Sequence record: CP132210.1
Source: a plasmid
Length of the DNA: 64,000 bases
Reading direction: 5' to 3' (one strand)
Of the stretch, positions 5,633-58,493 are shown one piece after another. A program made the position numbers and the translations under genes. Within the stretch, counting starts at the first letter, position 1, and every line of letters starts with the position of its first letter. Under the pieces are notes generated by a model. It did no database searches and was not told the DNA's origin. It saw only the letters and a program-made list of their open reading frames with translations.

Positions 5633-5649
5633 TTGCCCGAATTGGGCAG
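5633..5649. promoter_or_regulatory. Activator-box-like inverted repeat copy 1 (TTGCCCGAATTGGGCAG)
   Basis: Member of the 7-copy TGCCCAAAATGGGCA family. It lies about 75 bp upstream of the 5708 start codon. Confidence 0.5.
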
Positions 5650-5707
5650 TTCGGCGGGGTTGCATTTTTGAGGAGTCCTGTAGGCTGGTTGCTATAGGAG
5701 GTGAATA

Positions 5708-6181
5708 GTGGCCCAGCTTAAACATAACCGCTTCGTCATGTTGGGTGCCTTGGTAGCGACTGTTGTAGCTGCCGCCAATGGTTTGAGTTTTATCACCCTT
5801 ATGGCTGGTGGAATAACCCTTCTCCAGTTCGTGGCATGGAAGCAACAAGATGCGATCCGGAGCCGGTTTAAAGCCGCGAAGGATGCGTTTGAAGCGTTGA
5901 ATGTCATAGCGTTTGACAAGCACTGGGTAGGCTCAACCGCGAAGGTCGCCAAGGTGTCGAGCACGAGCACCCCTCCCGAACGACTGGATAAGCCTTGGGC
6001 GGTGCAAGTTCTGGCCGTAACCAGTGGTGGGGCGTGGTTCGCAGTGGACCTGCAAGTGACCTGCACCGACAAGGTTCAGATGCTTTACCTCCACCGCCTT
6101 AGTGAAAAGACAGCAAAGACAATGCTGGCCTTCGATCTCGAAGTGTATGAGCGATTTTTCGGAAAACCTGATGTTGCATGA
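5708..6181 (+). CDS. Hypothetical membrane protein (157 aa)
   Basis: GTG start with AGGAGGTG RBS. N-terminal hydrophobic segment. Confidence 0.45.
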   Translation: MAQLKHNRFVMLGALVATVVAAANGLSFITLMAGGITLLQFVAWKQQDAIRSRFKAAKDAFEALNVIAFDKHWVGSTAKVAKVSSTSTPPERLDKPWAVQVLAVTSGGAWFAVDLQVTCTDKVQMLYLHRLSEKTAKTMLAFDLEVYERFFGKPDVA

Positions 6182-6192
6182 GGACAATGTGA

Positions 6193-6485
6193 TGGAAAAA
6201 GTCAAAAACGTAGATGCCGTTGAATTCACGGCAGCAGATAAGAAGGCGATGACCCATGCGGCTTACGCCCAGTGCTTCTTTGTTCTGGCCCAAGCAATAG
6301 CGTTTCCTTCCTTGGGGATGGCTGGCGCTATGGTTGCAGCTATGTGCGGCATGATGCCGTGGTTGACCAAGTTTGCCAAAGAGGCCCCCTCGAAAGCCTT
6401 TGGCATGGTGATGGCCTCGCTCGGCTTGGCACCTGTGTACGGAAAGCTCTGTGAGCTGGTGGTCAGTGCGATTCAGGGAGCTTGA
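6193..6485 (+). CDS. Small hydrophobic protein (about 97 aa)
   Basis: ATG at 6193. The product is Ala/Met-rich and hydrophobic. The start is uncertain. Confidence 0.35.
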
Positions 6486-7344
6486 GTTTATGGGGGTAGT
6501 ACGAGTTCCCTACCTCTTGGCTGAGCTGAAAGAACGCGGATGTGCTGATGAATCTGCTCTGGCGAAGGTTATGCAGCCAGGATGCCGGATTGAAGGGGAA
6601 GATCTGCGAAAGTTGGCCGCCAAGTTAGGGGTTGAAGTGTCCGAACTGGCACCTGCACCAGAGAACGAGGCCAATACCCGGTTCAAAGCAAAACTGAGAG
6701 GAGGTTTGGCCTCCTTTCTTTTTGAGTACGACGGCTGTTTCCGACATGCCGAAGGCTCCAGTCATGCAGAAATGTTGGGGATCGAGCAAGAAGACGATAT
6801 TGGCCTTCCGAGTAGAGCTGCGGACGCCATGCTCCTGGAGAAGACGCTTTATCAAGTAATCGCTCGGGCTAAGTACATGCTTGGCAAAATCGACGGCAAG
6901 TTTGTCAGGTCAGAACAGGCAATCGAGTTCCGTGAGCAGCTTGCTCCTGGGATCTTCAAGCCAGGTTATAGAGGCTTCCGATTTAAGGAGGCTGCTGCTG
7001 GTGATCTGCCTACTGTCATGATTGACGGTAGGAAGTTCAATTGCATTGCCAGCATAGCCAGAGCACATGGACTTGATCCGGTAACGGTGCGTAGGCGCAT
7101 TGCGGACACCGGGAAGGACGCAGACAAACTCACCAATGATGAGTGGAAACTCATCCTCGCCAAGAAGAAAGGTAAAGGGAAGCCCTTCACCTATCTGGAC
7201 AGGACCTACAGCAACATTGCTCAGTTCTGTCGTGAGCATCAGCTCAACACCAACCTTGTTTACCAGAAAGTCAAAGACCGGGCTGATAGCGCTGATGAAG
7301 AGTTCTGGGGACTGATAATCGAAACATGCAAAAGGAAAATCTAA
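6451..7344 (+). CDS. Hypothetical protein with C-terminal HTH-like segment (start uncertain: 6451 or 6490)
   Basis: Long ORF. GRKFNCIASIARAHGLDPVTVRRRI resembles an HTH. The stop abuts the sppA RBS. Confidence 0.45.
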   Translation: MSWWSVRFRELEFMGVVRVPYLLAELKERGCADESALAKVMQPGCRIEGEDLRKLAAKLGVEVSELAPAPENEANTRFKAKLRGGLASFLFEYDGCFRHAEGSSHAEMLGIEQEDDIGLPSRAADAMLLEKTLYQVIARAKYMLGKIDGKFVRSEQAIEFREQLAPGIFKPGYRGFRFKEAAAGDLPTVMIDGRKFNCIASIARAHGLDPVTVRRRIADTGKDADKLTNDEWKLILAKKKGKGKPFTYLDRTYSNIAQFCREHQLNTNLVYQKVKDRADSADEEFWGLIIETCKRKI

Positions 7345-8303
7345 TGGCAGAAAGCAAAGAGCTCCCCTGGGAGAGAGAGCTTATTGAGAAGTACATGTTC
7401 ACCCTGCATAAGGAGCAGGTGAAAGATCGCCGCTGGCGGGCTCTGTTGCGTGTGCTTCGCGCATCAGGTTTCGTGCTTCTCATGATCGGCTTCATCATCT
7501 TAGCGTCTAATCCGGGCGGGATGCCGTGGCAAAGCACCAAAGCAGGAGCCCCTCACACCGCGTATATCAACATCCGTGGTGAAATTGCTGCCGGTACACT
7601 GGCAGATGCTGATCACCTTATCCCGTCTATCCAAGCCGCATTCGACAACCCGAACTCCCAAGCCGTTGTACTTCGCATAAACAGCCCTGGCGGTAGCCCC
7701 GTTCAAGCTGGGCGGATTTATGAAGAAGTTAAAGCGCTGCGAGCGCTTCACCCAGAAAAAAAGGTCTACGCCATCATTGATGACATCGGTGCGTCTGGCG
7801 GCTACTACATCGCCTCTGCTGCGGACGAGATCTATGCTGACCGCGCAAGTCTGGTCGGCTCTATCGGCGTCATCAGCTCAGGGTTCGGATTCACTGGCCT
7901 GATGGACAAGCTCGGCATCGAGCGCCGGGCGATCACTTCCGGAGAGCACAAAGCTCTTCTCGATCCATTCTCCCCTCTTACCTCTGACATGAAGACATTT
8001 TGGGAGGGCGTTCTATCAAAAACCCACCAGCAGTTCATCGAGCGAGTGAAGGCTGGTCGAGGTGATCGACTGAAAGGCGACCAAGAGGTGTTTTCTGGGT
8101 TGCTTTGGAATGGGGAGCAGGCCAAAGACATTGGGTTGATTGATGGCTTGGGGAGTTTGAACTCCGTGGCGCGAGACGTCATCCACCAGAGCAACCTAGT
8201 GGACTACACCCCAACCGAAGACATCATCCGGCGACTGACCCAACGAGCGAAGCTCGAAGCCAGTTCCTTCGTGCAAGAACTCAGTGCTGTGAAAGTTTAC
8301 TGA
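7345..8303 (+). CDS. sppA: Signal peptide peptidase SppA (S49 family, short 36K-type)
   Basis: S49 protease core (INSPGGSP..., GASGGYYIA..., SLVGSIGV) after an N-terminal TM segment. AAGGAA RBS 7 nt upstream of the ATG at 7345. Confidence 0.8.
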
Positions 8304-8318
8304 TAGGAGAAGTTTGAC

Positions 8319-9179
8319 ATGCCAGAACAAAATACCAAATCGCTACGCCTCGGGGTTATTGCCGCCATTATTTTGGGACTCGCAGGAACCGGGTTCGGCA
8401 TTTACCAGTTCGTGAAAGAGAAGGAGCTGGCGCAAGAGATCGCTAACGTGAAGTCCACGGTCAACCAGGTGAAGGGCACCGAAGGTGTCACTTTCAAAAG
8501 CAAAGCAGAGTTTGAAGCTGCGGTGGCCGAAAGCATCAACAAGTTTGTCGCGCAGAAACAACAAGCCGACATCGATCAGAAGTATGCCAAGTTTGAGGCA
8601 GCTCCTGAGAAGGTCGATGACGGTAAACACATCTACGGGGCCCCTGGTGCTAGGTTCACACTGGTGGAGTTCTCCGATATGGAATGTCCGTTCTGCAAGC
8701 AATTCCACGACACACCCAAGCAAATTGTTGATGCCAGCAAAGGGAATGTGAATTGGCAGTGGAAGCATATGCCTCTCGATTTCCATAATCCGACAGCTCA
8801 CAGAGAAGCATTGGCCGCTGAGTGTATTGCTGAGCAGAAAGGCAACCGAGGCTTCTGGGTCTTCGTGAATGACATTTTCCATCACAGCCAAGGTAACGGT
8901 GCTGGGGTTGCTGACTTGGCCTCTGTTGTTACTGGTGTTGGCGCTGATCTGGATGAGTTCCGGGACTGCCTCGGTTCTGGCAAGCATGAAGACAAGGTTG
9001 AGGCTGACATCCAGAAGGCCAAGAGCTATGGCGTTAACGGGACTCCGGCCACATTTGTAGTGGACAACCAAACCGGCAAGAGTCAGCTCCTCGGCGGCGC
9101 TCAACCGGCACAAGCCATCATGGCTGTGATGCGAAAAATGATGATTGAGTCGCAGCCAGACGACTCAGCAAGCCAATAA
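8319..9179 (+). CDS. Membrane-anchored DsbA-like thiol:disulfide oxidoreductase
   Basis: N-terminal TM helix, coiled segment, then a thioredoxin fold with CPFC active site. Confidence 0.7.
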   Translation: MPEQNTKSLRLGVIAAIILGLAGTGFGIYQFVKEKELAQEIANVKSTVNQVKGTEGVTFKSKAEFEAAVAESINKFVAQKQQADIDQKYAKFEAAPEKVDDGKHIYGAPGARFTLVEFSDMECPFCKQFHDTPKQIVDASKGNVNWQWKHMPLDFHNPTAHREALAAECIAEQKGNRGFWVFVNDIFHHSQGNGAGVADLASVVTGVGADLDEFRDCLGSGKHEDKVEADIQKAKSYGVNGTPATFVVDNQTGKSQLLGGAQPAQAIMAVMRKMMIESQPDDSASQ

Positions 9180-9180
9180 G

Positions 9181-9198
9181 ACTTTCACATGTGAAAGT
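9181..9198. promoter_or_regulatory. Dispersed palindrome copy 3 (ACTTTCACATGTGAAAGT), intergenic
   Basis: Perfect 18-bp palindrome 2 bp after the dsbA-like stop. Confidence 0.6.
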
Positions 9199-9395
9199 CG
9201 GGTTCCTAAGGGGCCTGACTTTCGCTATGAGGTGTACCAATGGAGTTACAAAAAGCAAAAGAGGCTCTCGATAGCCATTACCCTCACAAGGCGTCAGCCT
9301 CTTTGAGGCTTGTCTTCCACCAGCCTGGAGGGATTGGTGAAACCCCTACCGTAGGGGGGAAAGCAATTCATGCTGGGTTTGATAGGGAGTGAGAA

Positions 9396-9842
9396 ATGCT
9401 AAAACGCGGAATTATCAATCTTGCTGCGAGTTACATCATTGTCGATGCCCTACTCCGTAGTGCAGCAATTTGGATCTTTGGCTTGCCCTTCTCGGTTGGT
9501 AGCGCTTACGCCACTGGTGAGGCAAGTTCATGGGTCGTCTACCTAGCCATATCTGGCGCAATGACACTCTGTTCCATCGTAACAGCCTACCTGCTCGTGA
9601 CCTATCACAGATGGGGGTTAATGACAGCCAGGGTCTGGTTGCTATTGAGTGCATGTCTAAACGGCTATGCCGTCTACCTGAGTAGCCACAACACCCAGTT
9701 TGTGGTGGCACTGCTTTCCAGCCTGTTTATTGCTTTGTGGATGCTCAAGACCCTTGAACAACCAGCAGTGAAGGGGACGTACAAGGTAATCGCAGATCTT
9801 CACCATCAGCTATGGGGAATGTTGAAGGGGCAAACACAATGA
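9396..9842 (+). CDS. Integral membrane protein (148 aa, about 4 TM)
   Basis: Hydrophobic profile. Coupled to the next gene by an ATGA overlap. Confidence 0.45.
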
Positions 9843-10357
9843 CGACGAATACTCAAAACGCGAACACCAACCGGGATATGTCTTTACGCAACATGCTCGT
9901 CCCCGCTCTTTTGTTCTACGTGATGATGACGGCCATGTTTCTGGGACTTGACGCATTCATGGATCAGACCACCAGCATGAACCTGCCATTCATGCCGTTC
10001 CTTGTTTCGATGGTGTGCTTTACCAGTGATGCACGTCGAGCGTGGGACTGGCGAAACGGGCTCAAAGTTGTGGTCGTATTGACTGTGGTAGCCATGCTGT
10101 TTGCATTCGCCTATCAGCTCGCGGTCGGAAAGGTGAGTCTCTTTGGGGTTGGTATATACCCGGTCACAGCCTTCCTTTTGTTGGCAATCACCTGGGTGAT
10201 TCGCGCTATCGGAAAGACGGCACCATTCCAGTTCCTTGGGAGGCGCTTGGCGCGAATTGGTGCATCGAAGTGGGTCCAACGCACCGTCGCAGTCATGGTG
10301 CTCGCTGGGGGGCTTGCCATCACCGTTTATGCGTACTGGCTTAACCAAGGTAGCTAA
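9839..10357 (+). CDS. Integral membrane protein (172 aa, about 5 TM)
   Basis: ATG overlaps the upstream TGA. Hydrophobic profile. Confidence 0.45.
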
Positions 10358-10587
10358 TGATGATTATTGCAACTAAGGGCGGCTTGCTGGTGGCCGCAGA
10401 ACTAATCAAGGAAGAGGCCGGGTACTGGCTACTAAAGCCTCGTGACCAAAAGATGCCGATCAGGGTGAATAAGCAGGATCACAATAAACGTGCGTTCACG
10501 CATATGGGCGACGCCCTTCGCTGGGCCGGTGATCCTGAGCTTGCCAAGCAGTTCGATGCTGAGGGGGAAATACATGCAAATTCGTGA
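10357..10587 (+). CDS. Small hypothetical protein (76 aa)
   Basis: TAATG overlap with the upstream stop. No motifs. Confidence 0.3.
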   Translation: MMIIATKGGLLVAAELIKEEAGYWLLKPRDQKMPIRVNKQDHNKRAFTHMGDALRWAGDPELAKQFDAEGEIHANS

Positions 10588-11431
10588 CGACATGACAAAG
10601 TTGTTTGAGGCATTCGGTGATCCAGAAGAAGTCACCCGAGAAATGCTTCTGGGACAGGCGGAACTCATTCATACGATCAGCGATAAGTGTCAGAGCACAG
10701 GCCTGTTTCTGGATAGTCAGAAGCGTTTCAACCAGTTCGTTCAAGAGATCGAGGCTGACGACAAGGTTGAGGATCGGTTGCTTCATGCTTGGTGCTGGGT
10801 GCTGGACCGAATAGTGAAGGCTCCAACATCCTTTCACATGGATGGTGCTGTAATTTTGACAATGCCTCTGGTTGCCAGATACCTACCTCCGGTTGAACGT
10901 GAGCCGGAAACTATCGTGGTGAATCTCGATGAGGACTACAAGGCTCCTGTTGGCAACCAAACGCTCTGCGAGCTCATTATGGAACGGCGGCATTGGCCGC
11001 GAGGGGCAACGTGTGCGACCCAAGAAGCGGACGGGGCAGTTCTCTACTGGGACGCCCCGGTTGATGTCGTTGAGGAAGGCAGAAAGGTCGCCGGTAAGCA
11101 CGGCATGATGGCCGAAGTCGGGTTAAAGCATCAGGTCGATGCTTGGTATGCAGACATGGATGAGACTCGGCTCGCAACCGACTGGAACTCCGCCGTCATC
11201 ACGCCCCACTGCTTGTTGCTTTCCTACCTGGATATGCTTCAAAGGAACAACGTTCCATTTTGTGAAGGAGTTCAACTGGCTGCTCAATGGGTGAAGCAAC
11301 TTGGAGGGGAGTCTCGTGAAGGCACCGAGGATGCGCCGGGAACTGAGGTTACGGTGCTTTCCCTGGGAAGAGCCACCGCTCATTGTTTTAAACCGTATCC
11401 AGACACAAAAAACTTCTATTACGAGGCCTAG
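10574..11431 (+). CDS. Hypothetical protein (285 aa)
   Basis: ATG preceded by GAGGGGGA. The longer upstream extension lacks an RBS. Confidence 0.4.
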   Translation: MQIRDDMTKLFEAFGDPEEVTREMLLGQAELIHTISDKCQSTGLFLDSQKRFNQFVQEIEADDKVEDRLLHAWCWVLDRIVKAPTSFHMDGAVILTMPLVARYLPPVEREPETIVVNLDEDYKAPVGNQTLCELIMERRHWPRGATCATQEADGAVLYWDAPVDVVEEGRKVAGKHGMMAEVGLKHQVDAWYADMDETRLATDWNSAVITPHCLLLSYLDMLQRNNVPFCEGVQLAAQWVKQLGGESREGTEDAPGTEVTVLSLGRATAHCFKPYPDTKNFYYEA

Positions 11432-11480
11432 GCCAAAGCTCTACCTACTGGGGGGAGCAAGTAATTTGGATGGAGTGATT

Positions 11481-11999
11481 ATGAGGTTAGGTATTTTTGG
11501 GGTGGCAGCCTCCCTAGCAGCAATGCTGGTGGTTGCCCCTCAGGTATGGGCAGAAACCTTCAATGCGAGGGTTGTGGGCGTTTCTGACGGTGATACAGTC
11601 ACGGTTTTGACTGAACGAGACTGTGACTCAGGGGAAGATTGCCAGAGTGGCAAAGTCCAGTACCGGGTAAGGCTGGCGGAAATCGACACCCCTGAGAAGA
11701 AGCAACCCTACGGCTCTAAGGCGAAACAAGTATTGTCCGATCTGGTGTTTGGTCGAATGCTCAAGGTTGAGAGGATCGACAAAGACCGTTATGGCCGCTT
11801 GGTAGCCAACCTTTATGTTGATGGCAAATGGGTCAATGCCGAAATGGTCCGCTCTGGGAGTGCGTGGGTATACCGGCAGTACGCCAAAACACCAGAGCTG
11901 TTCCAGCTAGAAGCCGAGGCTAAAGCCGATAAGCGAGGCCTTTGGGCATTACCGGAATCAGAGAGAACTCCCCCTTGGGAGTGGCGAAGAAAGCACTAA
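11481..11999 (+). CDS. nuc: Secreted thermonuclease (staphylococcal-nuclease/SNase fold)
   Basis: Signal peptide MRLGIFGVAASLAAMLVVAPQVWA. SNase motifs VSDGDTV, LAEIDTPE and RYGRLVA. Confidence 0.8.
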   Translation: MRLGIFGVAASLAAMLVVAPQVWAETFNARVVGVSDGDTVTVLTERDCDSGEDCQSGKVQYRVRLAEIDTPEKKQPYGSKAKQVLSDLVFGRMLKVERIDKDRYGRLVANLYVDGKWVNAEMVRSGSAWVYRQYAKTPELFQLEAEAKADKRGLWALPESERTPPWEWRRKH

Positions 12000-12056
12000 C
12001 CACACACCAGTGTATACGGGTGTAAATAGTAACCAAGAAACCAAACAGGAATAACG

Positions 12057-12329
12057 ATGAACAAAAGCGAACTGATTATGAAAGTGGCCGAAGACGCAGA
12101 CATCAGCAAAGCACAGGCCGAAGCTGCGGTGAATGCGCTGATCAACTCTGTGACTGAGGAGCTTAAATCAGGTGGGACTGTAGCGCTCACAGGGTTTGGT
12201 ACTTTCCACGTTAAGTCGCGGGCAGCGAGAACCGGGCGGAATCCCCAGACTGGAGAGAACATCCAGATCGCCGCTGCTAACATCCCTGGGTTCAAAGCTG
12301 GTAAGGGGTTGAAAGACACCGTGAATTAG
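12057..12329 (+). CDS. HU/IHF-family DNA-binding protein
   Basis: MNKSELI...GFGTF...RNPQTGE signature of the HU-beta family. 90 aa. Confidence 0.85.
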
Positions 12330-12332
12330 TTG

Positions 12333-12411
12333 TTATTCATGTGTCACATGAATAAGGTTTACATAAGGCTCCCTTCGTGGGAGCCTTATTCATGTCTGAC
12401 ATGAATAAGGG
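12333..12411. promoter_or_regulatory. Twin palindromic operators flanking a hairpin: TTATTCATGTG-T-CACATGAATAA (12333..12355) and CCTTATTCATGTC-T-GACATGAATAAGG (12385..12411)
   Basis: Two perfect palindromes of 23 and 27 bp share the half-site TTATTCATGT. They flank the GGCTCCC/GGGAGCC hairpin and overlap the start of the 12392 ORF. Confidence 0.6.
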
Positions 12412-12715
12412 GGTGGGGGTGAGGTTGTCATCAACTCAGAAGGATGTTTTGTTCATTCTATATGCAATTGAAGTCGGTGGAAAAGCCGAGCCTGTACCAG
12501 GTATGAAAATGCTGTCGATGATCAACTCAGCTCGCCAGAGCTGTATTCATGGAACGAACTTCCGAACGTCATGCCACACGCTGGTGGATAATGGCTTATT
12601 GGACAAGTACCGGGACGAAACTTCTCTAAAGCTGGCCTTTAAGCTGACCGACGAGGGCAGGGGGCGTGCAGGAGAGATATACCGCAAAAGGTTGGAAGAA
12701 GAGCTGGAGAAGTAA
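12392..12715 (+). CDS. Putative small winged-helix transcriptional regulator
   Basis: 112-aa ORF downstream of the twin operators. The start is uncertain (12377, 12392 or 12401). Confidence 0.35.
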   Translation: MSDMNKGVGVRLSSTQKDVLFILYAIEVGGKAEPVPGMKMLSMINSARQSCIHGTNFRTSCHTLVDNGLLDKYRDETSLKLAFKLTDEGRGRAGEIYRKRLEEELEK

Positions 12716-17805: not shown

Positions 17806-17856
17806 CTCTGCGCAGCTCACTACGGGCACCCCAACCTCCCAAATAACTTTCCAATC

Positions 17857-17871
17857 TGCCCAAAATGGGAA
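17857..17871. promoter_or_regulatory. Activator-box-like inverted repeat copy 2 (TGCCCAAAATGGGAA)
   Basis: About 100 bp upstream of the 17970 start. Confidence 0.45.
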
Positions 17872-17942
17872 CGCAAGCGCCCGATAGAAAGTAATTGTCA
17901 GTGAGATATTGACTGAGCGTAATATGGTTATATCATGGGGTC

Positions 17943-18404: not shown

Positions 18405-18433
18405 ATTTATCGAACCTATCACTGAGGAAGAAA

Positions 18434-19607: not shown

Positions 19608-19613
19608 TTGTCG

Positions 19614-21378: not shown

Positions 21379-21432
21379 AATTGCGGATGTTCAAACCATG
21401 CTTTACAGCGGCACCTTTTGGGGAGCGGAATT

Positions 21433-22093: not shown

Positions 22094-23288
<1,195 letters not shown>

Positions 23289-28504: not shown

Positions 28505-28578
28505 CGTGTCGTTCCTCATCAAACATTGGCGATGAGCCCATTCTAAAAGGGGGGGAGTGGAAAGCTGGTTTCTCAAAC

Positions 28579-28594
28579 TGCCCAAATTGGACAG
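28579..28594. promoter_or_regulatory. Activator-box-like inverted repeat copy 3 (TGCCCAAATTGGACAG) in the traI/topB-operon divergent region
   Basis: About 90 bp upstream of the traI start and about 75 bp from the lipoprotein start. Confidence 0.5.
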
Positions 28595-28671
28595 ATAGGC
28601 GTGTGTGAGATTTAAAGGTGTTTTGAGAGCATGTAGCGACGAGAAATACGATAGGAATATGGTCAACCTAC

Positions 28672-36229: not shown

Positions 36230-36272
36230 TTCGCCCTTCTTTCCTACCCCGCACGAATAAACCTTATCGCGG

Positions 36273-36288
36273 TGCCCAAAATGGGCAG
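36273..36288. promoter_or_regulatory. Activator-box-like inverted repeat copy 4 (TGCCCAAAATGGGCAG) upstream of the traL operon
   Basis: 90 bp upstream of the small ORF at 36363 that leads the traL-traA operon. Confidence 0.5.
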
Positions 36289-36362
36289 CAACAGCACTGT
36301 GCCAAGATTGTTCAATTAAGAGACGATTGCTCCGGGATAATGACAAGTTATTTGGAGGGTCT

Positions 36363-36866: not shown

Positions 36867-37008
36867 CCGCTCCAGTAAACGCAAAAGAGGTGGCTCAGGC
36901 CGCCTTTTTTATTTGTCGCTGGAAGTGCCCGAAAAGGGCGCGAAGCCGTGGCAGAAAATCAGTGACCCTGAATGAAAATACAGGCCACAAGGAAAAAAGA
37001 GGGTTGCT

Positions 37009-40127: not shown

Positions 40128-40702
40128 AAAATCTGAACATTTTGACCAGAAAGGGCAGTTACAGAGGCGAGGCTCAAAAGGAGCAGGCAGTAAGATCCGC
40201 AAAGATGTTGGGAATGGGAGCAGTTCTTCTTGTTCTGTCGGGTTGCTCCTCTTTCAACATCGGTAGCGATGAGTATGGCTGTCCGGGAATGCCGAGTGGC
40301 GTTCAGTGTATGTCAGCGAGAGATGTTTATTCCGCAACTAATGACGGAAACGTCCCTCGCCCAATGAAGCCTGAGGAAGTCAAGGCCAAAGCGGAAGCGG
40401 ATGGCGGAGGTTCCTCTGACGTTTCAGTGAGCTCATCTAACTCCGGGGATTCAGTTATCGACAATTATGTCGCGCCGCGTCTTCCGGATCGCCCAATTCC
40501 AATTCGCACACCTGCGCAGGTTATGCGGATTTGGGTAGCTCCCTGGGAGGACACCAATGGTGATCTCATCGTGACAGGGTATGTCTACACCGAAATTGAG
40601 CCTCGCAGGTGGGTAATTGGGGATGGCGCGCCGCAAAGTGAGCCAGTTTTGAGACCGCTGCAAACGGTAACACACGAACCGAAGTCTGAAACAACTAAAT
40701 AG
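40124..40702 (+). CDS. traV: TraV lipoprotein
   Basis: LVLSGCSS lipobox. 192 aa. Confidence 0.7.
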   Translation: MKNLNILTRKGSYRGEAQKEQAVRSAKMLGMGAVLLVLSGCSSFNIGSDEYGCPGMPSGVQCMSARDVYSATNDGNVPRPMKPEEVKAKAEADGGGSSDVSVSSSNSGDSVIDNYVAPRLPDRPIPIRTPAQVMRIWVAPWEDTNGDLIVTGYVYTEIEPRRWVIGDGAPQSEPVLRPLQTVTHEPKSETTK

Positions 40703-41098: not shown

Positions 41099-41131
41099 AA
41101 GCCACTTCGCCATTAATGGTCGATTGATATG

Positions 41132-41160: not shown

Positions 41161-41286
41161 GGAAAAAATCTAGTCATAACAAATTTCAACTCTTTCCTCA
41201 TTTGCTCAAAAAGGGCACTTTCACAGCCCATGTTTATGCACTCCTTCCCGTAACCTCCAGCATTGGGTTCTTGTAACTCAAAACGA

Positions 41287-46785: not shown

Positions 46786-46800
46786 GGTTCACACCTCTCA

Positions 46801-46828
46801 AAGCCCGGCTCAGTCCGGGCTTTTTTTT
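46801..46828 (+). terminator. Intrinsic terminator after the giant ORF
   Basis: AAGCCCGGctcagtCCGGGC followed by T8. Confidence 0.7.
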
Positions 46829-46844
46829 GTATCGCGCTGGAGTT

Positions 46845-46860
46845 GTCCAAATTGGGCTAT
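46845..46860. promoter_or_regulatory. Activator-box-like inverted repeat copy 5 (TGTCCAAATTGGGCTA) upstream of dsbC-traC
   Basis: About 89 bp upstream of the dsbC start. Confidence 0.45.
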
Positions 46861-46933
46861 TACAGAGGCGAGTCTGTTTCCATCCCCCAGATAAACTGCC
46901 CAGCATCGAGTAATCCAATCTTAGGGGAGAGAC

Positions 46934-50085: not shown

Positions 50086-50099
50086 CCAGGGAGACTGTA

Positions 50100-50944: not shown

Positions 50945-52175
50945 GAGCGTTATTGTGGCGCTGATCTTCTCTGTGGCTGGCGGAGGGGCATCCGCTCAAG
51001 AGTCTCCGCTGTCAGAACAAGATAGGGCGTTTATTGAGCAAGGAAAGCAAATTGCCCAAAAGGCCCAGAGGATGGAAATGCCATCTCTGTTGCAGAACCA
51101 ACACATGGATGATGCTCAGGCCGAAGCTAAGGCGTTGTTCAATCAGCTCCAATCTACTAACCCGACGCTCAAGGAGATGCACCGTAAGCAGGCTGAAAAA
51201 GGCATCTACTCCGACCATCGGATATTGGTTTTCGCGTCTTTGTCGCTTGGCGAACAGGGGTTGGATGATGTCCTAACCGCTGTGTCGGGTCAGTCTGATG
51301 CGGTGATTGTGTTCCGTGGTGTTCCAGAAGGCATGAATCTGGGGCAGGGGGTTAAGTCTATTCAGGCTCTGGCGGCCAAAAAAGACCCTGTGCCAAACGT
51401 CATCATCAACCCAACTTTGTTCAAAACGTACAAAATCACAGCCGTTCCCACGATTGTGATGCTTGAGGATGAGCCGTTGCCCGGCGAGCAACCAAATGTC
51501 GTTGCCCAAGTTTCCGGTTTGTCCGACCCAGTATGGTTGGCTCGGGAAGTGGATAACGGAGAAAAAGGCGATCTCGGCGTTAAGGGGCCGGTGGAGAAAA
51601 TTAGCGAGCCAGACCTCATTGAGGTTGCCAAGAAACGCCTTGCCAATATCGACTGGGAAGAGAAGAAGAAGCTCGCTGTTGAGCGGTTCTGGACCAAGCA
51701 AAACTTCAATGAGCTACCCAGAGCGCCCAAATTTCGAACCAGAGAAATTGACCCCAGTGTCATGATCACCAGTGACATCAGCACTCCAGATGGCACAGTG
51801 TTCGCTCACGCGGGTGACGTGATCAACCCGTTGTGCGATCCGAAAGAAGTCTGCAAACCTGGAACACGGCCATTTACCCAAGCTGTCGTTGTCTTCGACC
51901 CGTTGGACAAAAAGCAGATGGAGCTGCTCGCCAAGAAACTGCCTGAAATTAAGAAGGAGCCTGGAGTTCAGCGGATCACCTATATCGCTACAAAGTTCGA
52001 TAAAGACAAAGGCTGGGACTCCTACAAGAGTGTTACCGACAGCTTTGATGCGCCGGTATATCTACTGACCCCTGATCTGATTACCAGGTTCGAGCTGGAG
52101 CACACTCCAAGCGTGATTACAGCCAGAGGCAAGAAGTTTCTCATCCGCGAATTTGCTGAGGAGGGCGGTGAATGA
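50907..52175 (+). CDS. traW: TraW
   Basis: Signal peptide. 422 aa. Gene order. Confidence 0.7.
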   Translation: MIRSLAAHIPCSKSVIVALIFSVAGGGASAQESPLSEQDRAFIEQGKQIAQKAQRMEMPSLLQNQHMDDAQAEAKALFNQLQSTNPTLKEMHRKQAEKGIYSDHRILVFASLSLGEQGLDDVLTAVSGQSDAVIVFRGVPEGMNLGQGVKSIQALAAKKDPVPNVIINPTLFKTYKITAVPTIVMLEDEPLPGEQPNVVAQVSGLSDPVWLAREVDNGEKGDLGVKGPVEKISEPDLIEVAKKRLANIDWEEKKKLAVERFWTKQNFNELPRAPKFRTREIDPSVMITSDISTPDGTVFAHAGDVINPLCDPKEVCKPGTRPFTQAVVVFDPLDKKQMELLAKKLPEIKKEPGVQRITYIATKFDKDKGWDSYKSVTDSFDAPVYLLTPDLITRFELEHTPSVITARGKKFLIREFAEEGGE

Positions 52176-52849
52176 TTTTTTCCCCGGCTTTACAGCAAAT
52201 TAAGGACGTCGGAACAGGCTCGTTTGTTGCGGCTGAGGTTTTGGCTCGTTGGTGCTGCGAAGGCCAGATGCTTACTCCATCGGAGTTGTCATCACCTCCT
52301 AATTGGGGCTTGGTAGATATTGAGATTGCCAGGTTCATTCAAGATAACCTTTGCCATTGCAGTGAGGAATATCAGGCTATTTTTGTTAATGTGTCAGAGC
52401 AGACTTTGAAATCTGACATCATCTTTCATACGTGGGCTCAGATAATTAGGGCAATCACGAAGAATTATCCATTAAGGCTTGTCATCGAGATCACTGAGGG
52501 GGTTCAAGACAAATCTCTAGCATTTAGATGGAGCTCTCTTACTGCGATGGGGGTTAATCTAGCTCTTGATGATTATGGAGACAAAAACTCTTCAATGGCT
52601 CGCTTGCTTAGCTACGACTGGAATTATTGCAAATTCGATGCGAGAAAACTGAGTTCATTTGAAGATTATTCAGCCATTCTTCATTGCCGACGTAAAGGCA
52701 TCCATCTTATTGCGGAACAGGTTGAGACACCACCATTGGAAGAGAATGCCAAATTACTTGGTTTGGTATGGCAACAAGGTTTCCTTCATGGGAAGCCGAC
52801 TGTTATAGAGAAAAGTTTGAATCGAGCAAAGGTCTTACCATTATGCTGA
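52172..52849 (+). CDS. Stand-alone EAL-domain protein (putative c-di-GMP phosphodiesterase)
   Basis: EVLARW (EAL signature variant), EITE, DDYG, KFD and AEQVET...QGFLHGKP motifs in canonical order. 225 aa. Embedded between traW and traU. Confidence 0.7.
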   Translation: MIFSPALQQIKDVGTGSFVAAEVLARWCCEGQMLTPSELSSPPNWGLVDIEIARFIQDNLCHCSEEYQAIFVNVSEQTLKSDIIFHTWAQIIRAITKNYPLRLVIEITEGVQDKSLAFRWSSLTAMGVNLALDDYGDKNSSMARLLSYDWNYCKFDARKLSSFEDYSAILHCRRKGIHLIAEQVETPPLEENAKLLGLVWQQGFLHGKPTVIEKSLNRAKVLPLC

Positions 52850-53847
52850 AATTCATGAAATTAACTGTGTTTGCACTTGCACTGTTTAGTGGGGTAGTGA
52901 AAGCAGAGCCGGGTTGCCAGAATGCCGAGGTGATTGGTGGGAAGCTGATAACAGATATATGTTGGAGTTGCCTATTCCCTATAAAAATTGCAGGGGTGTC
53001 AATTAGTGGTGGAGGCGGTGTTGTGCCTAGTGATGCGGTTACATCACCCCTATGTGCCTGCAATGATAATCTGGGTGTTCCAAGGCCAGGGGTAACTACG
53101 TCTATGTGGGAGCCTGCAAGGCTTATTGAGTTCCAAAGAGTCCCAGGATGCTCCTCTGTGTTGAATGGCACTCGTTTCCCATTTGATCGAACAAATCAAG
53201 GTCATCATGGAATGGGGGATATGGATGGGGGTGATGGCTCTTTTATGCACTACCACTATTATGCGTTCCCCCTGCTTATTATGCTCGATATGTTCATAAA
53301 AGAGAGCTGTAATGCGGATGGGTACATGGATCTAGACATCATGTATCTTTCTGAGGTGGACCCGACTTGGAACAATGACGAGCTCGCTTTTTTTACTAAC
53401 CCAGAGGCTGCGGCAGTAGCAAATCCAATCGCCGCAACAGCCTGCACTGCCGATGCTATTTCTTCTACGGCAGGAAAACCACTCAAGCAGCTTTTTTGGT
53501 GCGCTGGTTCATGGGGGGCGCTATACCCCCTAAGTGGAAACCAAAATGGCGGTAAGGGGGTTATACGTGACAGCAGCCTTCTAACTACTCGTGTTTTGGC
53601 CGCGTTGCACCGGAGAGGGTTGGCGTGGAAGACTATGGGCTCAGATGCAATGTGTCGTGGAGTGATAAGCCCGACACTTCCAAAAACACAATACAAGTTC
53701 ACGTTGTTACATCCAGTTCCTGAGACAAACTCATCTCATGTGATAGGGGAGTCGGCCTTGACTTGGGGGCTATCGAGGACAATTCCATCAATAGGCCAAG
53801 ACCCTATCTATACCATTTGGAGGTGGAACGACTGCTGCAATAATTGA
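52843..53847 (+). CDS. traU: TraU
   Basis: Signal peptide MLKFMKLTVFALALFSGVVKA. Conserved CWSCLFPIKIAGV. Overlaps the EAL gene stop. Confidence 0.75.
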   Translation: MLKFMKLTVFALALFSGVVKAEPGCQNAEVIGGKLITDICWSCLFPIKIAGVSISGGGGVVPSDAVTSPLCACNDNLGVPRPGVTTSMWEPARLIEFQRVPGCSSVLNGTRFPFDRTNQGHHGMGDMDGGDGSFMHYHYYAFPLLIMLDMFIKESCNADGYMDLDIMYLSEVDPTWNNDELAFFTNPEAAAVANPIAATACTADAISSTAGKPLKQLFWCAGSWGALYPLSGNQNGGKGVIRDSSLLTTRVLAALHRRGLAWKTMGSDAMCRGVISPTLPKTQYKFTLLHPVPETNSSHVIGESALTWGLSRTIPSIGQDPIYTIWRWNDCCNN

Positions 53848-53864: not shown

Positions 53865-53889
53865 GAAAAGCCGTGCGTTGCACGGCTTT
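53865..53889 (+). terminator. Intrinsic terminator after traU
   Basis: AAAAGCCGTGCgttGCACGGC followed by TTTT. Confidence 0.55.
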
Positions 53890-53919
53890 TGCATTTCAAG
53901 ATGTATGTTTTACGCAGAG

Positions 53920-53935
53920 TGCCCAAAATGGGCCA
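53920..53935. promoter_or_regulatory. Activator-box-like inverted repeat copy 6 (TGCCCAAAATGGGCCA) upstream of traN
   Basis: About 70-80 bp upstream of the traN start. Confidence 0.5.
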
Positions 53936-53997
53936 CTAGGCATACTAACGTGGATTTCTCTCTGGGGTAGCATCTGAGTGTCAGAATGGAGATGAAT

Positions 53998-56736
53998 ATG
54001 CGAAGTCACACCCTAGTCATGAGAACCGTCGCCTCATTGCTTTCCATAACCATTTCCGCGTTGCCGGTACATGGTTATGCCAGTAGTTCGAGTGCGGCGG
54101 ATATAGCCACTGTAGGCAAAGATGCTCAATCATTTGGACAGAGCTTATCTAACTCATTCAAGTCAAACTCTGGAACTGTTCAGGATGGCACTATTTCAAT
54201 GCCTACGTTGAAAGATGGTCAGTTCCAAATGAATGGTGGTGAACAAGTTAATGTTAATGATCTGTTCCCAGGGACAAGTAGTAAAAATAACAAACCAGAC
54301 AGCTATTATTTCCCCGACGCCAATAAGCCAAGCGTTGATAACCTACAGGGCATGTATGATTCTGGTAGCGACATGGATAATGTTGGCAACTCTTCTCAGG
54401 GGACACTCTGGTCCGATGCTAATAGCTCTAATCCATCAATTTCGGGTGCTGCATATAAAGTCCTGCTTGATGCAACAAATCGTTCTCGCCCGGACTTTTC
54501 TAATGATCCAGTTTTGAATCTAAGTAAAAAAACCTATGAAAATATGGATCTTATTGCTGGTGGTTTTGGTGATTGTTCTGCTGAAACAACTATTAATGAA
54601 GGAACCATAAATGCTCACGTCCCTGAGTATGAGCGTTGTCAGCGAGTAGTAAAACCTGCTGGTGATTGCGATATTATCCATTCCTTGGGAATAACAAGTG
54701 ATGTTCAATATGTATATGTCGGTTCTGTAGGTCGAACTTGGGTCACTGTTAAATTTGACCTTAAAAATGGTACGTGGGAACCAATTGCACCCTCTGATGG
54801 TGCTCAAAAAGTCGCGCAAATACCAAAAGTAGATTTCAATGCCATGTGCAGTGGTGCCGTTAATTTTAAGACCGATCTTGTTGGTTCTTGGGATTGGGCT
54901 GAGCATGGCCTACCCGGAAAGATCGACTCGACTGTTATCTATAGAGTTAACCAATATCCAACTTGTGAGAATGGTTTGGTTGGGGTTGTACAGATCCAGG
55001 ACACTACGGAATCAGATGACCTAGAGTGGATTCTTGGTGGGAAGTTTGCTTTTCGATTCACCAAGCAAGTTGAGGACCAATGGACTCCGCAGACTTGTAT
55101 TGATGATGCAAAGAAATTGAATGATGGGTTTTGTAAGGGAACGATAAGTGTTACTGAGGGGGCCAGAAATGAAAACGACTGTATTACAGTTAATGGCTCC
55201 AGCATTTGCCCTGGTGATCCATTCTTCAATTCACTGAAACCATCGCCGTTGCCAGGTATTCCAAGGCTCGCACAGAAAGTCAGGGTATCAAAACTCCAGT
55301 GCGACTTTAATGTGGGGCAAATGGAATGCTGGACTGACCCTCAAGGGGTAAAACATTGCCCTAACAATGATGGTGGAAATGTAAACAGTTGCGCGGCACT
55401 AGAAGGCAATCCTAAATGTGGCTTCATCAGCTCTGAGTGTATTGGTGGTGCCCAAGGCCCATCGGGCCAATGTTATGTATTTAAGGATACTTACGATTGT
55501 GGTGTGGATGTCAAAGTCCCAACTCTCGATAAGAACACTGAGTACAAGTGTGGTGGTCCGATCCGTTGCATGGGGGATGATTGCTTAGCAATAAATAAAT
55601 CTCAGAGTACCGATTTCGCCAGAGCAACAGCCTTACTTAATGCTGCTCAGTTTTTGACACAAGATATGAAGTGTACCGATAGCGCAACCGAAGAGGGGGG
55701 GGATGGAAATATTGATCAAGGATGTACGGTTTTTGGCGGCGAATCCGGTGAATGTAAAATAGCTGTAGGTGGTGTATCGGATTGCTGTGAAAAGCCTTCA
55801 AATATATCTCTAGCTGATTACCTAAACTTGATCATGGCTGTTCCCAAGCTAGATGGTGCGGTAATGGGGTTACAAGATGGTAATGCCATGAAGGGCGCTT
55901 ATCAGGTTCTTCGAGATCCTGTAATGGAAGGTTGGACTGAGGTAACAAAGCCATTTACGAGCTATATTGAAAATATATCCGGTTCTGTGGACTCATTTAT
56001 GGAACCAGTGAACCAGGTGATGGATCAACTTATTGAGCAGCTAAAAGAGCAGGTTAAAGAAGTCATGATGGACGTCTTTAAATCTGCTGGGCAAGATGCC
56101 GCGACAGAGCAAGCTGCTGCTGCCGCATCGGAACAAGCCGCAGAACAGATGATGCAGACCGCAACGACATGGCTCAGTACAGCGATGACAATCTATACGG
56201 TCTATGTTGTCACAATGGTAATGATCCAAATGATTTATAAATGTGAGGAGTCTGAGTTCACAATGAACGCCAAAAGGGCGTTGAAGAATTGCACTTATGT
56301 TGGTTCTTATTGCAAATCCAAAGTATTGGGCGCTTGCATAGAGGAGCGTGAGGCTTATTGCTGCTTTAACTCTCCTCTTTCCAGAATAATTCAAGAGCAA
56401 ATTCGGCCACAACTCGGCCAATCTTTTGGTGATCCCAAAAGTCCCCAGTGTGGTGGTATTTCTCTGGAGAAAATTGCAGACATAGATTGGAACAAAGTTA
56501 ATTTGGATGAGTGGTTGGGGATTTTGCAGCAAAATGGCAAGTTCCCTACGCCTGGATCAATAAATATTGACTCGCTAACTGGCGCTGGTAGTGACTTCAA
56601 TATTAATGGGGATCGAAAGAATGCCCAAGAGAGAGCGTTACAGAGGCTTGATGGAATAGACATCGACGCCAAGAGGAAAGAGGCAACAAATCGCGTTAAT
56701 CCTCAAACAGGCGCGCCAAATAATAATGGTGGATAA
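53998..56736 (+). CDS. traN: TraN (Cys-rich mating-pair stabilisation protein)
   Basis: Signal peptide. Many Cys residues in the C-terminal half. About 912 aa. Confidence 0.8.
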   Translation: MRSHTLVMRTVASLLSITISALPVHGYASSSSAADIATVGKDAQSFGQSLSNSFKSNSGTVQDGTISMPTLKDGQFQMNGGEQVNVNDLFPGTSSKNNKPDSYYFPDANKPSVDNLQGMYDSGSDMDNVGNSSQGTLWSDANSSNPSISGAAYKVLLDATNRSRPDFSNDPVLNLSKKTYENMDLIAGGFGDCSAETTINEGTINAHVPEYERCQRVVKPAGDCDIIHSLGITSDVQYVYVGSVGRTWVTVKFDLKNGTWEPIAPSDGAQKVAQIPKVDFNAMCSGAVNFKTDLVGSWDWAEHGLPGKIDSTVIYRVNQYPTCENGLVGVVQIQDTTESDDLEWILGGKFAFRFTKQVEDQWTPQTCIDDAKKLNDGFCKGTISVTEGARNENDCITVNGSSICPGDPFFNSLKPSPLPGIPRLAQKVRVSKLQCDFNVGQMECWTDPQGVKHCPNNDGGNVNSCAALEGNPKCGFISSECIGGAQGPSGQCYVFKDTYDCGVDVKVPTLDKNTEYKCGGPIRCMGDDCLAINKSQSTDFARATALLNAAQFLTQDMKCTDSATEEGGDGNIDQGCTVFGGESGECKIAVGGVSDCCEKPSNISLADYLNLIMAVPKLDGAVMGLQDGNAMKGAYQVLRDPVMEGWTEVTKPFTSYIENISGSVDSFMEPVNQVMDQLIEQLKEQVKEVMMDVFKSAGQDAATEQAAAAASEQAAEQMMQTATTWLSTAMTIYTVYVVTMVMIQMIYKCEESEFTMNAKRALKNCTYVGSYCKSKVLGACIEEREAYCCFNSPLSRIIQEQIRPQLGQSFGDPKSPQCGGISLEKIADIDWNKVNLDEWLGILQQNGKFPTPGSINIDSLTGAGSDFNINGDRKNAQERALQRLDGIDIDAKRKEATNRVNPQTGAPNNNGG

Positions 56737-56774: not shown

Positions 56775-57635
56775 TCATGCTTCTGGGTAAACAAATAACT
56801 CAGCCTTTCCCTGACCAAGAAGGTAAGGGAACCCAACTTTGTCGCCACTCTCCAGTTCCACTGATTTTGGAGCAAGGTAAAGATAGGACCAAGCTGGTAG
56901 CTGTTTGCTAATAGCGGCGTAGATCGCTTGCTGAGGAGCATGGCTTGCTGTTCCATTGCCGACTTTCACAAAGTTGTAGTCAGTCTCATGTCCTGATGTG
57001 AAGGCATACGCTGTGCCTTGGACACCAGAGACAAAATCAGGCGCGGTCCCAATGCGAGGCTCCACGATATTTACTTTGACTGAACACATGTCAGCCACCT
57101 TACTTTGTCCGTTCACCCACGTAGGGCAACCCCATTCGTTCTTGTAGAACTGATAGGTGAGACGACCGTCTTTGTCATACAGAAGTGTGAAATTCGCACC
57201 CAAGTCAGTCAGAGCTGACTCGATGGAAACTTTCACATGTGAAAGAAGTTTGCCCTGAGCATCTGCCGGTGACGCAGCTTCTTTAGCAGGCATCCAGGCG
57301 ATCAAGCTATTGCGAGCTCCGTGCTGTTTAGGACCGATGGCCCAGTTGGCAAGGTTGACTAAGCCACCTTGCCAGTCGGTCATACCAACCTGAGGGGACA
57401 TATAGCCAGACAGCACGTAGGCAGCACCAAACGTTTTGGTGTCGGTCAAGCGTTCCAGCTTGTCACGCGGAACCGAAGCGTCTTGAATGCCTGTTACCAG
57501 GCCACCGGCCTCTGCGATGTTGTAAGCGCGACTGTGATTGGTTTTGTACGCTGCGGGTTCGTAACTACTGGTGGATGCACAGCCAGACAGAGCTGCTACA
57601 ACTAGAGCCACAGTGGTGATTGAAGCATGTTTCAT
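56775..57635 (-). CDS. Lipoprotein (286 aa)
   Basis: VVAALSGCAST lipobox. Palindrome copy 7 lies inside the CDS. Confidence 0.55.
   Translation of the reverse strand: MKHASITTVALVVAALSGCASTSSYEPAAYKTNHSRAYNIAEAGGLVTGIQDASVPRDKLERLTDTKTFGAAYVLSGYMSPQVGMTDWQGGLVNLANWAIGPKQHGARNSLIAWMPAKEAASPADAQGKLLSHVKVSIESALTDLGANFTLLYDKDGRLTYQFYKNEWGCPTWVNGQSKVADMCSVKVNIVEPRIGTAPDFVSGVQGTAYAFTSGHETDYNFVKVGNGTASHAPQQAIYAAISKQLPAWSYLYLAPKSVELESGDKVGFPYLLGQGKAELFVYPEA
57231..57246. promoter_or_regulatory. Dispersed palindrome copy 7 (CTTTCACATGTGAAAG), intragenic
   Basis: Perfect 16-bp palindrome inside the lipoprotein CDS. It again encodes LSHVKV. Confidence 0.55.
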
Positions 57636-57707
57636 GTTGTTCTCCGTTCTTACCTGATTTGCTTCGATAATATCACGGCATCATAAAATGCAACCATAAA
57701 AGGCGTA

Positions 57708-57733
57708 AAAAAGCCCCTCCGGAGAGGGGCAAA
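57708..57733 (-). terminator. Intrinsic terminator (minus strand) after the 57747 gene
   Basis: On the minus strand: GCCCCTCtccgGAGGGGC followed by TTTTTT. Confidence 0.6.
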
Positions 57734-57746
57734 GGTTTGGGCAGGG

Positions 57747-58397
57747 TTATGCGGCTTTCTCGTCATCAGTTTTTGCAGCTTCGGCTGCGAGTTCGTTGTC
57801 GCCGGTTACAGATTCCGGGGCGGCCTGGGCTACTTCCCCTTCTTTGCCCTTGGTGTGGGCGGAAATGCGGGCTCGTTTCTCGATGCCGATGATGCGACCG
57901 GCCAGTTTAATAAGACGTTGCTGCCATTGATACGTGGCGTCGGTGCGCTGTTTGCTGGTCAGTACAGTGTTCAACCAGAGGGTATCAACGATCCCCATCA
58001 GGGTATCCAGCTTGCGGATCAGGTGTGCAAACTGGGCAACTTGGGGAGAGTTGATCTCGATGGTGTATTCGGTCGGGTTGGTGTAGCCGGGCATCATGTC
58101 GATGCCGTTGTCTTCCATCAGCTTGTTGAGCTGGGCGGTAGCTTTGTCCAAGTCTTCGGAAACCTTGGCGATGTGCTCCAGGATGACGGTTTCAACCTGG
58201 TCAATTTCGTCCTGCTCACCGATGATCCGAAGAATAACGTCGATGGAAAACAGGGAGTTGGATACTCGCTCAAAGCTGCGTTCCATGACGCGCTGGGCCT
58301 GGAGGCTGTTTACTTTCAGAGCTTGTTTGAAAACAGGGCGAGAGTAGTGGTTGTTGCGGTCGCTGCTTGTGCCTACTGCTGCTTGTGCTTCTGCCAT
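57747..58397 (-). CDS. Hypothetical antiparallel-helical protein (216 aa) between traN and the recombination module; candidate regulator
   Basis: Predicted all-helical with an acidic C-terminal tail. Its position corresponds to where IncC plasmids encode an accessory regulator (AcaB), but no motif confirms this. Confidence 0.45.
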   Translation of the reverse strand: MAEAQAAVGTSSDRNNHYSRPVFKQALKVNSLQAQRVMERSFERVSNSLFSIDVILRIIGEQDEIDQVETVILEHIAKVSEDLDKATAQLNKLMEDNGIDMMPGYTNPTEYTIEINSPQVAQFAHLIRKLDTLMGIVDTLWLNTVLTSKQRTDATYQWQQRLIKLAGRIIGIEKRARISAHTKGKEGEVAQAAPESVTGDNELAAEAAKTDDEKAA

Positions 58398-58477
58398 TAG
58401 AGATACTCCTAAGTTGAGGTACAGATAAACGCACAGAAAGGATAAATGCGGTCAATCTGTAACCTGACATCCCGAAG

Positions 58478-58493
58478 TGCCCAAAATGGACAG
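58478..58493. promoter_or_regulatory. Activator-box-like inverted repeat copy 7 (TGCCCAAAATGGACAG)
   Basis: In the divergent region, 80 bp from the start of the 57747 gene and about 200 bp from the 58689 gene. Confidence 0.45.

Follow-up and report, generated by a model that had tools for sequence, protein, structure and literature searches.

The closest described counterpart of the inverted repeats considered here is the AcaCD regulon of the IncC plasmid pVCR94. AcaC and AcaD co-purify as a heteromeric FlhDC-like complex (PMC4207636, PMC4605294), and AcaCD binding on pVCR94deltaX was mapped by chromatin immunoprecipitation with exonuclease treatment (ChIP-exo), 5' rapid amplification of cDNA ends (5'-RACE), and RNA sequencing (RNA-seq), with 17 peaks and their motif coordinates given in Table S3 of that study (Carraro et al. 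2014, PLoS Genet, PMC4207636). The 13-bp inverted repeat proved essential and the -35 element dispensable in electrophoretic mobility shift assays, footprinting, and deletions (Kiss et al. 2015, PMC4605294), and all pVCR94 AcaCD promoters were later examined as lacZ fusions (Durand et al. 2021, NAR, PMC8373056). We analysed a 64,000-nucleotide stretch of plasmid DNA (record CP132210.1; hereafter, the window), in which an earlier note had described seven copies of an inverted repeat as the candidate regulon of a master activator. These palindromes are very probably AcaCD boxes, the operators of an FlhDC-like heteromer whose genes this same IncA plasmid carries. The finding is correct, not new: the experimental map of this regulon dates from 2014, and later work has refined the picture.

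Over its whole length, the window matches bases 1-64000 of CP132325.1 with 100% identity; this record is a Citrobacter freundii plasmid of 173,479 bp that was typed as IncA, MOBH, and MPF_F and carries blaVIM-1 and other resistance genes. Position 1 of the window is the start of repA, and coordinates beyond the window are those of CP132325.1. In PLSDB, approximately 39 plasmids were at least 99% identical across the 28-46 kb transfer region, and approximately 900 (IncC) were 80-90% identical across it.

A matrix derived from the seven sites of the earlier note was rejected because it would be circular when scoring the window. Instead, a 28-bp log-odds matrix was built from 18 gene-oriented pVCR94 ChIP-exo sites (Carraro 2014, Table S3, PMC4207636), with zero window sequences used. 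The motif coordinates in Table S3 coincide exactly with GCCC-N5-GGGC sites in the pVCR94deltaX sequence (NC_023291.1). The controls were 100 window-sized first-order Markov sequences for the matrix and 100 dinucleotide shuffles for the motif counts.

Ten box loci in the order of the pVCR94 regulon

All seven of the inverted repeats claimed in the earlier note are present, beginning at 5634, 17857, 28579, 36273, 46844, 53920, and 58478 (5633 and 46845 had each been given 1 bp off), with 2, 1, 2, 0, 3, 1, and 1 mismatches to TGCCCAAAATGGGCA, respectively. At three mismatches or fewer, TGCCCAAAATGGGCA matched the window 17 times, compared with 2.84 ± 1.72 times in the shuffles, an approximately six-fold excess that 0 of 100 shuffles reached; TGCCC-N5-GGGCA had 14 matches at one mismatch or fewer, with 2.76 expected. 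The list of seven was incomplete, as three further sites of the same family, at 36926 (TGCCCGAAAAGGGCG), 40143 (TGACCAGAAAGGGCA), and 41203 (TGCTCAAAAAGGGCA), had been overlooked. The resulting ten box loci serve twelve promoters (Table 1). With the independent matrix, nine of the ten loci scored 21.8-33.5 and matched the 28-bp motif, bearing out the resemblance to the AcaCD box that had been proposed; the locus at 17853-17880 alone did not match. Among the Markov controls, the mean best score was 11.8 and the single highest 22.7, with chance expectations of 0.57 matches scoring at least 12 and 3.07 scoring at least 8 per 64 kb.

All ten loci have one-to-one counterparts among the pVCR94 peaks, with order and spacing preserved, upstream of orthologous genes: vcrx012, vcrx035/036, vcrx059/traI, vcrx068, traL, traV, vcrx076, dsbC, traN, and vcrx086 (acaB)/vcrx087. 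For the 5634 box, the pVCR94 orthologue is the peak at 6466-6494, with a transcription start site (TSS) at 6529-6531. The 28-mers are identical to those of pVCR94 at the traI/vcrx059, traL, and vcrx087 boxes; the traL 28-mer at 36922 corresponds to a pVCR94 TSS at 43460-43462. The 28579 box has the same sequence as the pVCR94 vcrx059/traI box, and the 58478 box is the orthologue of the vcrx086/vcrx087 peak, both of which have divergent TSSs on pVCR94. Among the sites assigned earlier to five transfer blocks, those before traI, dsbC-traC, and traN kept their targets, while the 36273 site was reassigned from traL to the vcrx068/069 homologues, the traL box being that at 36926. The site after traN (58478) was likewise confirmed, with acaB on the minus strand as a target that had been overlooked.

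The cognate activator genes were expected to lie outside the window and were located there on the same replicon, at 169227-170383: acaD spans 169227-169835 and acaC, annotated as FlhC family, spans 169832-170383. Their products are 96.5 and 98.4% identical to the pVCR94 counterparts, respectively, and the arrangement acr1, transglycosylase, acaD, acaC, acr2 (H-NS family) is the same as in pVCR94. Scanning outside the window with the matrix retrieved five more boxes, at the orthologues of vcrx098, vcrx114, vcrx140, traF, and vcrx152. The vcrx128 box is missing from the IncA plasmid along with the RHS gene. The whole AcaCD-controlled RHS toxin/MafI immunity module of pVCR94 (vcrx128-129, 94587-99434) is absent, the corresponding position in CP132325.1 being approximately 87062-87118, so that the IncA regulon has one promoter fewer.

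By orthology, AcaCD binding, TSSs, and AcaCD-dependent transcription would carry over from the IncC to the IncA plasmid. On pVCR94, expression of vcrx013-vcrx025, the counterpart of the 5708 operon, rises from approximately 0 in the acaCD deletion to 19-2999 expression units with AcaCD, that of vcrx036-vcrx040 (the 17970 operon) from 0-70 to 117-988, and that of vcrx059-vcrx056 (the lipoprotein-topB operon, with a divergent TSS) from 0 to 180-854, topB (vcrx057) reaching 854; for vcrx086 the increase is from 17 to 1093, and for vcrx087-089 from approximately 3 to approximately 3400 (PMC4207636). Thus, the proposals that the 5708 operon belongs to the transfer regulon and that the lipoprotein-topB operon is under shared control were already published for the pVCR94 orthologues. 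Membership of the 17970 operon is also published for pVCR94, but it is the least secure claim for the present plasmid, where the box is degenerate.

Table 1. Predicted AcaCD boxes in the window and the genes that they would control
Feature	Position	Strand	Matrix score	Details
Box, vcrx012-type operon promoter	5630..5657	+	22.5	palindrome 5634-5648 (TGCCCGAATTGGGCA)
Operon from the 5634 box	5708..12715 (3' end approximate)	+		first codon GTG 5708; Pfam matches
Named genes of that operon	7344-8303; 8319-9179; 11481-11999; 12057-12329	+		S49 peptidase; DsbA; SNase-type nuclease; HU (in order); rest unknown open reading frames
Degenerate box before vcrx036-type operon	17853..17880	+	10.9	palindrome 17857-17871 (TGCCCAAAATGGGAA)
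vcrx036-type operon	17970-22050	+		includes C5 methyltransferase 19933-21378
Bidirectional box	28570..28602	both	26.4 (+, 28575); 27.4 (-, 28570)	palindrome 28579-28593
Targets of the 28579 box	28672 (+); 28504 down to 25071 (-)	both		traI/mobH (+); lipoprotein-topB operon (-)
Box, promoter of two small open reading frames	36269..36296	+	22.0	palindrome 36273-36287 (perfect TGCCCAAAATGGGCA); pVCR94 vcrx068 orthologue
Two small open reading frames	36363-36506; 36519-36866	+		vcrx068/069 homologues
Box, traL-traE-traK-traB promoter	36922..36949	+	21.8	palindrome 36926-36940; traL start 37009
Box, traV-traA promoter	40139..40166	+	28.0	palindrome 40143-40157; orthologue of strongest pVCR94 peak
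Box, vcrx076-homologue promoter	41199..41226	+	25.7	palindrome 41203-41217; pVCR94 vcrx076 orthologue
Ig-like-domain gene (1829 amino acids)	41299-46785	+		vcrx076 homologue; predicted to be driven by the 41203 box
Box, dsbC-traC-trhF-traW-traU promoter	46840..46867	+	27.3	palindrome 46844-46858; pVCR94 dsbC orthologue; operon 46934-53847
Box, traN promoter	53916..53943	+	26.3	palindrome 53920-53934; traN 53998-56736
Bidirectional box	58469..58501	both	33.5 (+, 58474); 24.4 (-, 58469)	palindrome 58478-58492
Targets of the 58478 box	57747-58397 (-); 58689 (+)	both		acaB (-); vcrx087 homologue (+)
acaB homologue	57747..58397	-		93.5% amino acid identity to pVCR94 vcrx086

Besides the ten loci, a match within topB (26978-27005, minus strand, TGTCCGTCCAGAATGGGCAATTTGCCGC, score 14.3) was taken as chance, as it lies in coding sequence and approximately 0.6 such matches are expected per window. 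This AcaCD-like sequence is kept in pRA1 (42081), scores below the threshold of 12 for listing in pVCR94, and is probably non-functional. Weak matches (scores 9-10) within an open reading frame (ORF) at 5232-5264 were also taken as chance.

Promoter geometry and a predicted feedback loop

On pVCR94, transcription begins 51-53 bp downstream from the palindrome centre at every locus, and the geometry of the window promoters was placed by alignment to these 5'-RACE starts. The pairwise promoter alignments were 78-97% identical, except at traN (56%). A TAnnnT-like hexamer stands at a fixed spacing from the palindrome in all twelve window promoters (TAGGCT, TAGAAT, GAGCAT, TAAGAT, TAACCT, TAAACT, TAGCAT, and TATCCT among them), and none of the twelve, aligned by their palindromes, has a -35 element. 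Likewise, a sigma-70 consensus scan of 35.5-54.5 kb matched none of the box promoters in that interval. The distances from palindrome start to start codon at the seven sites first described are 74, 113, 93, 90, 90, 78, and 211 nt, in order, so the range of 60-110 bp given in the earlier note applies to five of them and fails for 17857 and 58478. What is constant is the spacing to the transcription start, as known from pVCR94 with its palindrome centres at -52/-53, rather than the distance to the operon start. The statement that all sites precede plus-strand operons was also incomplete because the 28579 and 58478 boxes are bidirectional. The 58478 palindrome is 211 nt from the next plus-strand ORF and approximately 88 nt, measured from its centre, from the minus-strand acaB start; in the plus direction, it probably also drives the genes as far as bet/exo (63849).

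These features suggest that the box would be an asymmetric 28-bp element, in which a conserved extension of approximately GTTACAGNG adjoins the GCCC-N5-GGGC core on its promoter side. It would span approximately -63 to -36, with the palindrome centre approximately 52 bp upstream of the TSS. At promoters with a -10-like TAnnnT and no -35 element, AcaCD would recruit sigma-70 RNA polymerase and replace the -35 contact. Removal of the putative -35 element in Pxis had no effect (PMC4605294), and the ChIP-exo footprint reaches across the polymerase-bound region (PMC4207636); 'class-II-type activation' and direct recruitment of the sigma-70 polymerase are the inference of the authors of those studies. 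The twelve promoters so activated would be those of the vcrx012-type and vcrx036-type operons, lipoprotein-topB, traI, the two small ORFs, traLEKB, traVA, the Ig-like gene, dsbC-traCWU, traN, acaB, and the genes from vcrx087 to bet/exo.

The acaB promoter deserves particular attention. pVCR94 vcrx086 is acaB, whose product activates the acaDC promoter, while AcaCD activates acaB (PMC8373056). Because of this reciprocal activation, the 58478 box would close a positive-feedback switch for conjugation, running from AcaCD through acaB to acaDC. AcaB itself had no match in the Pfam scan. Its neighbour is sfx, at 56775-57635, which in IncC is constitutive and on a separate transcript (PMC11493245).

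Several operon boundaries could be refined. Terminator-like hairpins lie directly upstream of the 41203 box (41131-41150) and the 46844 box (46800-46823), and a GC hairpin with a T-run at approximately 36889-36915, read by eye and unlisted by a simple terminator scan, lies ahead of the traL box. Since these hairpins adjoin them upstream, the boxes at 36926, 41203, and 46844 mark real operon starts. The 40143 box falls within the annotated traV ORF, which starts at 40124, whereas the TSS placed by alignment is at approximately 40202 and the lipoprotein signal MLGMGAVLLVLSGC begins at the ATG at 40205, or at 40214. Because its annotated start precedes its own box and TSS, the ORF is probably approximately 27-30 codons too long. 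The pVCR94 annotation is similar, with a traV start at 46600 and a TSS at 46677-46679. On the minus strand, the product of 27887-28504, the first gene of the lipoprotein-topB operon, has the N-terminal lipoprotein signal MRQLIAVLGVALMAGC, including LMAGC.

As for gene content, Pfam scans of the two operons that had been called unknown and of the topB operon matched only an S49 peptidase, DsbA, SNase, and a C5 methyltransferase; the vcrx036-type operon encodes small Cys-rich proteins in addition to its C5 cytosine methyltransferase. An IS5-family transposase gene (22162-23142) lies just 3' of the vcrx036-type operon, after 21433-22050, and pRA1 has no insertion sequence there. On pVCR94, ssb (68208-68738) lies between the vcrx090 homologue and bet; in the window, the corresponding gap (61611-61781) is approximately 170 bp with no ssb annotated.

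Conservation, the weak 17857 box, and other explanations

Three points weigh against reading all of the palindromes as AcaCD boxes. Function is carried over from an IncC relative whose promoters are approximately 80-97% identical, and the conservation may in part reflect shared ancestry. The score of the 17857 box is within the chance range, and its promoter-proximal GGGC arm has a C-to-A change at a position where C is invariant in 18 of the 18 matrix sites. Finally, lacZ fusions of the IncC vcrx035, vcrx036, and vcrx087 promoters showed constitutive activity (PMC8373056), and a bound box at these genes is thus not proof of AcaCD dependence.

The corresponding alternative is that recent divergence of IncA and IncC alone has conserved the boxes, some or all of which would no longer be AcaCD operators, with the 17857 box decayed and the 17970 operon constitutive or silent. 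The 78-97% promoter identity does make conservation weak evidence in general. However, at the other nine loci, the boxes are kept at least as well as their flanks, and the traN box persists between diverged flanks that are only 56% identical: TGCCCAAAATGGGCC in the window and TGCCCCAAAAGGGCC in pVCR94 stay in register, together with the TAGCAT -10 hexamer. The vcrx012-type box is retained even where the first-gene protein is only 35-48% identical, in two distant MOBH/MPF_F plasmids. In Aeromonas salmonicida pAsmA (48% protein identity), the box is TGCCCAATCCGGGCA, scoring 16.9 in gene orientation and 25.3 in reverse; a plasmid of Pseudoalteromonas agarivorans (35%) has CGCCCAATTTGGGCA, which scores 25.6 and lies 71 nt before an in-frame ATG, as against 74 nt in the window. 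AcaC and AcaD are, moreover, 98 and 96% identical to their IncC counterparts, so DNA specificity should stay unchanged. Judged from the traN and vcrx012-type sequences, box conservation exceeds what shared ancestry alone would leave, and we consider this alternative very unlikely. As a negative control, a MOBF Pseudomonas plasmid with a vcrx036-like gene (69% identical) had no box upstream of it, which fits a box that belongs to A/C-like backbones rather than to the vcrx036-like gene.

Divergence at traN extends beyond its promoter. TraN is 64.5% identical to that of pVCR94, compared with 88.5% for TraI and 98.4% for AcaC, and the traN region (53880-56736) is much more diverged than the remaining backbone. 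This fits TraN as a specificity determinant for mating-pair and surface-exclusion functions.

It is at 17857 that decay has the most in its favour. The box scores 10.9 against 27.3 for its pVCR94 orthologue (TGCCCAAAATGGGCG), lacZ fusions showed the IncC vcrx036 promoter to be constitutive, and half a site retained only residual activity in Pxis (PMC4605294). On the other hand, natural AcaCD-activated boxes tolerate one arm mismatch (GGAC at traI, GACC at traV, and ACCC at vcrx098/114/128), and the -10 region is also kept; in the literature on point mutations at single box positions, only deletion and half-site data were found. Owing to the degenerate box and the constitutive IncC promoter, the 17970 operon is the least secure regulon member on this plasmid. 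The change is shared by a lineage: the exact 61 bp of the window at 17857 occur in 25 PLSDB records from Citrobacter, Klebsiella, Enterobacter, Serratia, Raoultella, and E. coli, while approximately 17 IncA-type records carry the form of pRA1, in which, as in a Salmonella IncA plasmid, the palindrome is a perfect TGCCCAAAATGGGCA (pRA1 33544-33558). We tentatively raise the idea, which we regard as rather doubtful, that the C-to-A change released the vcrx036-type operon of the blaVIM-1 IncA sublineage from control by the conjugation switch. If true, the AcaCD regulon would have been rewired naturally in this one lineage, with pRA1-type IncA plasmids keeping the perfect palindrome.

Two differences of pRA1 were noted in passing. 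It lacks 13 bp just past the -10 region of the vcrx036-type promoter that the window and pVCR94 both have. It also has an extra AcaCD-like box at 19253-19285 (TGCCCAAAATGGGCT, score 18.0) without a window counterpart, approximately 100 bp before a pRA1-specific block from 19379, perhaps a cargo module that the regulon has taken in.

That the sites are operators of another FlhDC-like activator, either SetCD of SXT/R391 or SgaCD of SGI1-type islands, is highly improbable. The idea has some footing, as the earlier note had put AcaCD and SetCD together, and SgaCD binds and activates every AcaCD-responsive pVCR94 promoter (PMC8373056). However, the SetCD motif, compared here by its published description, is 19 bp long and 'drastically differs', and the activators are not exchangeable (PMC4344509, PMC4207636). 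The replicon itself carries acaDC and no setCD, and no SGI1 is in evidence; only the AcaCD half of the proposed pairing therefore holds. SgaCD would in any case be an extra cross-activator in trans and not an alternative explanation. Hardly more credible is that the palindromes arose by chance or serve a structural role, whether as small hairpin terminators, as repeat elements, or as partition sites of the ParB/KorB type. Although they are short inverted repeats in intergenic DNA, no shuffle reached the observed motif count, and short arms of only 4-5 bp enclose an A/T core, without a T-run. The motif also has a direction, marked by its conserved 3' extension and by a -10 hexamer at a fixed distance, separate terminator hairpins stand upstream of several boxes, and ChIP-exo places AcaCD on the orthologous pVCR94 sites.

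Significance and comparison with known systems

AcaCD boxes determine which genes are switched on when IncA and IncC multidrug-resistance plasmids ready themselves for transfer, and genomic islands such as SGI1 copy them to hitch along. For annotation, the present analysis labels ten box loci, twelve transcription units, and the acaB feedback gene, and makes one traV start correctable. Understanding of the system is unchanged; the only new detail is the weakened box in one clinically successful IncA sublineage.

Among the related activators, FlhDC belongs to the same protein family (AcaC being annotated as FlhC family), and both activate sigma-70 promoters with a poor -35 element, whereas the AcaCD motif reportedly bears no relation to the FlhDC box (PMC4207636). 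SetCD of SXT/R391 is likewise an FlhDC-like heteromer with a box abutting the missing -35 element (Poulin-Laprade et al. 2015, PMC4344509), and it controls the traI, traL, traV, dsbC, and traF operons as well as divergent promoters (PMC4344509). In contrast to AcaCD, it uses an unrelated 19-bp motif, its C and D subunits share only 34 and 23% identity with AcaC and AcaD, respectively, and the two are not exchangeable. The boxes of SGI1 (PMC4605294) have the same GCCC-N5-GGGC core and 3' extension, and the SGI1 trhH/trhG box, TGCCCAAATTGGACAG, shares its core with the traI box of the window; however, they are decoy operators on islands that hijack the plasmid activator, whereas the window boxes are the plasmid's own. 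The pVCR94 regulon itself (PMC4207636, PMC8373056), for which experimental mapping covers IncC only, differs from the present one in that the IncA plasmid has a degenerate vcrx036 box (GGGAA) and strongly diverged traN flanks and TraN, and lacks the vcrx128 (RHS toxin) promoter along with its box. In all other respects compared, namely the 28-bp motif, the order of the ten loci, the divergent pairs, the downstream genes, and the activator, the two are alike.

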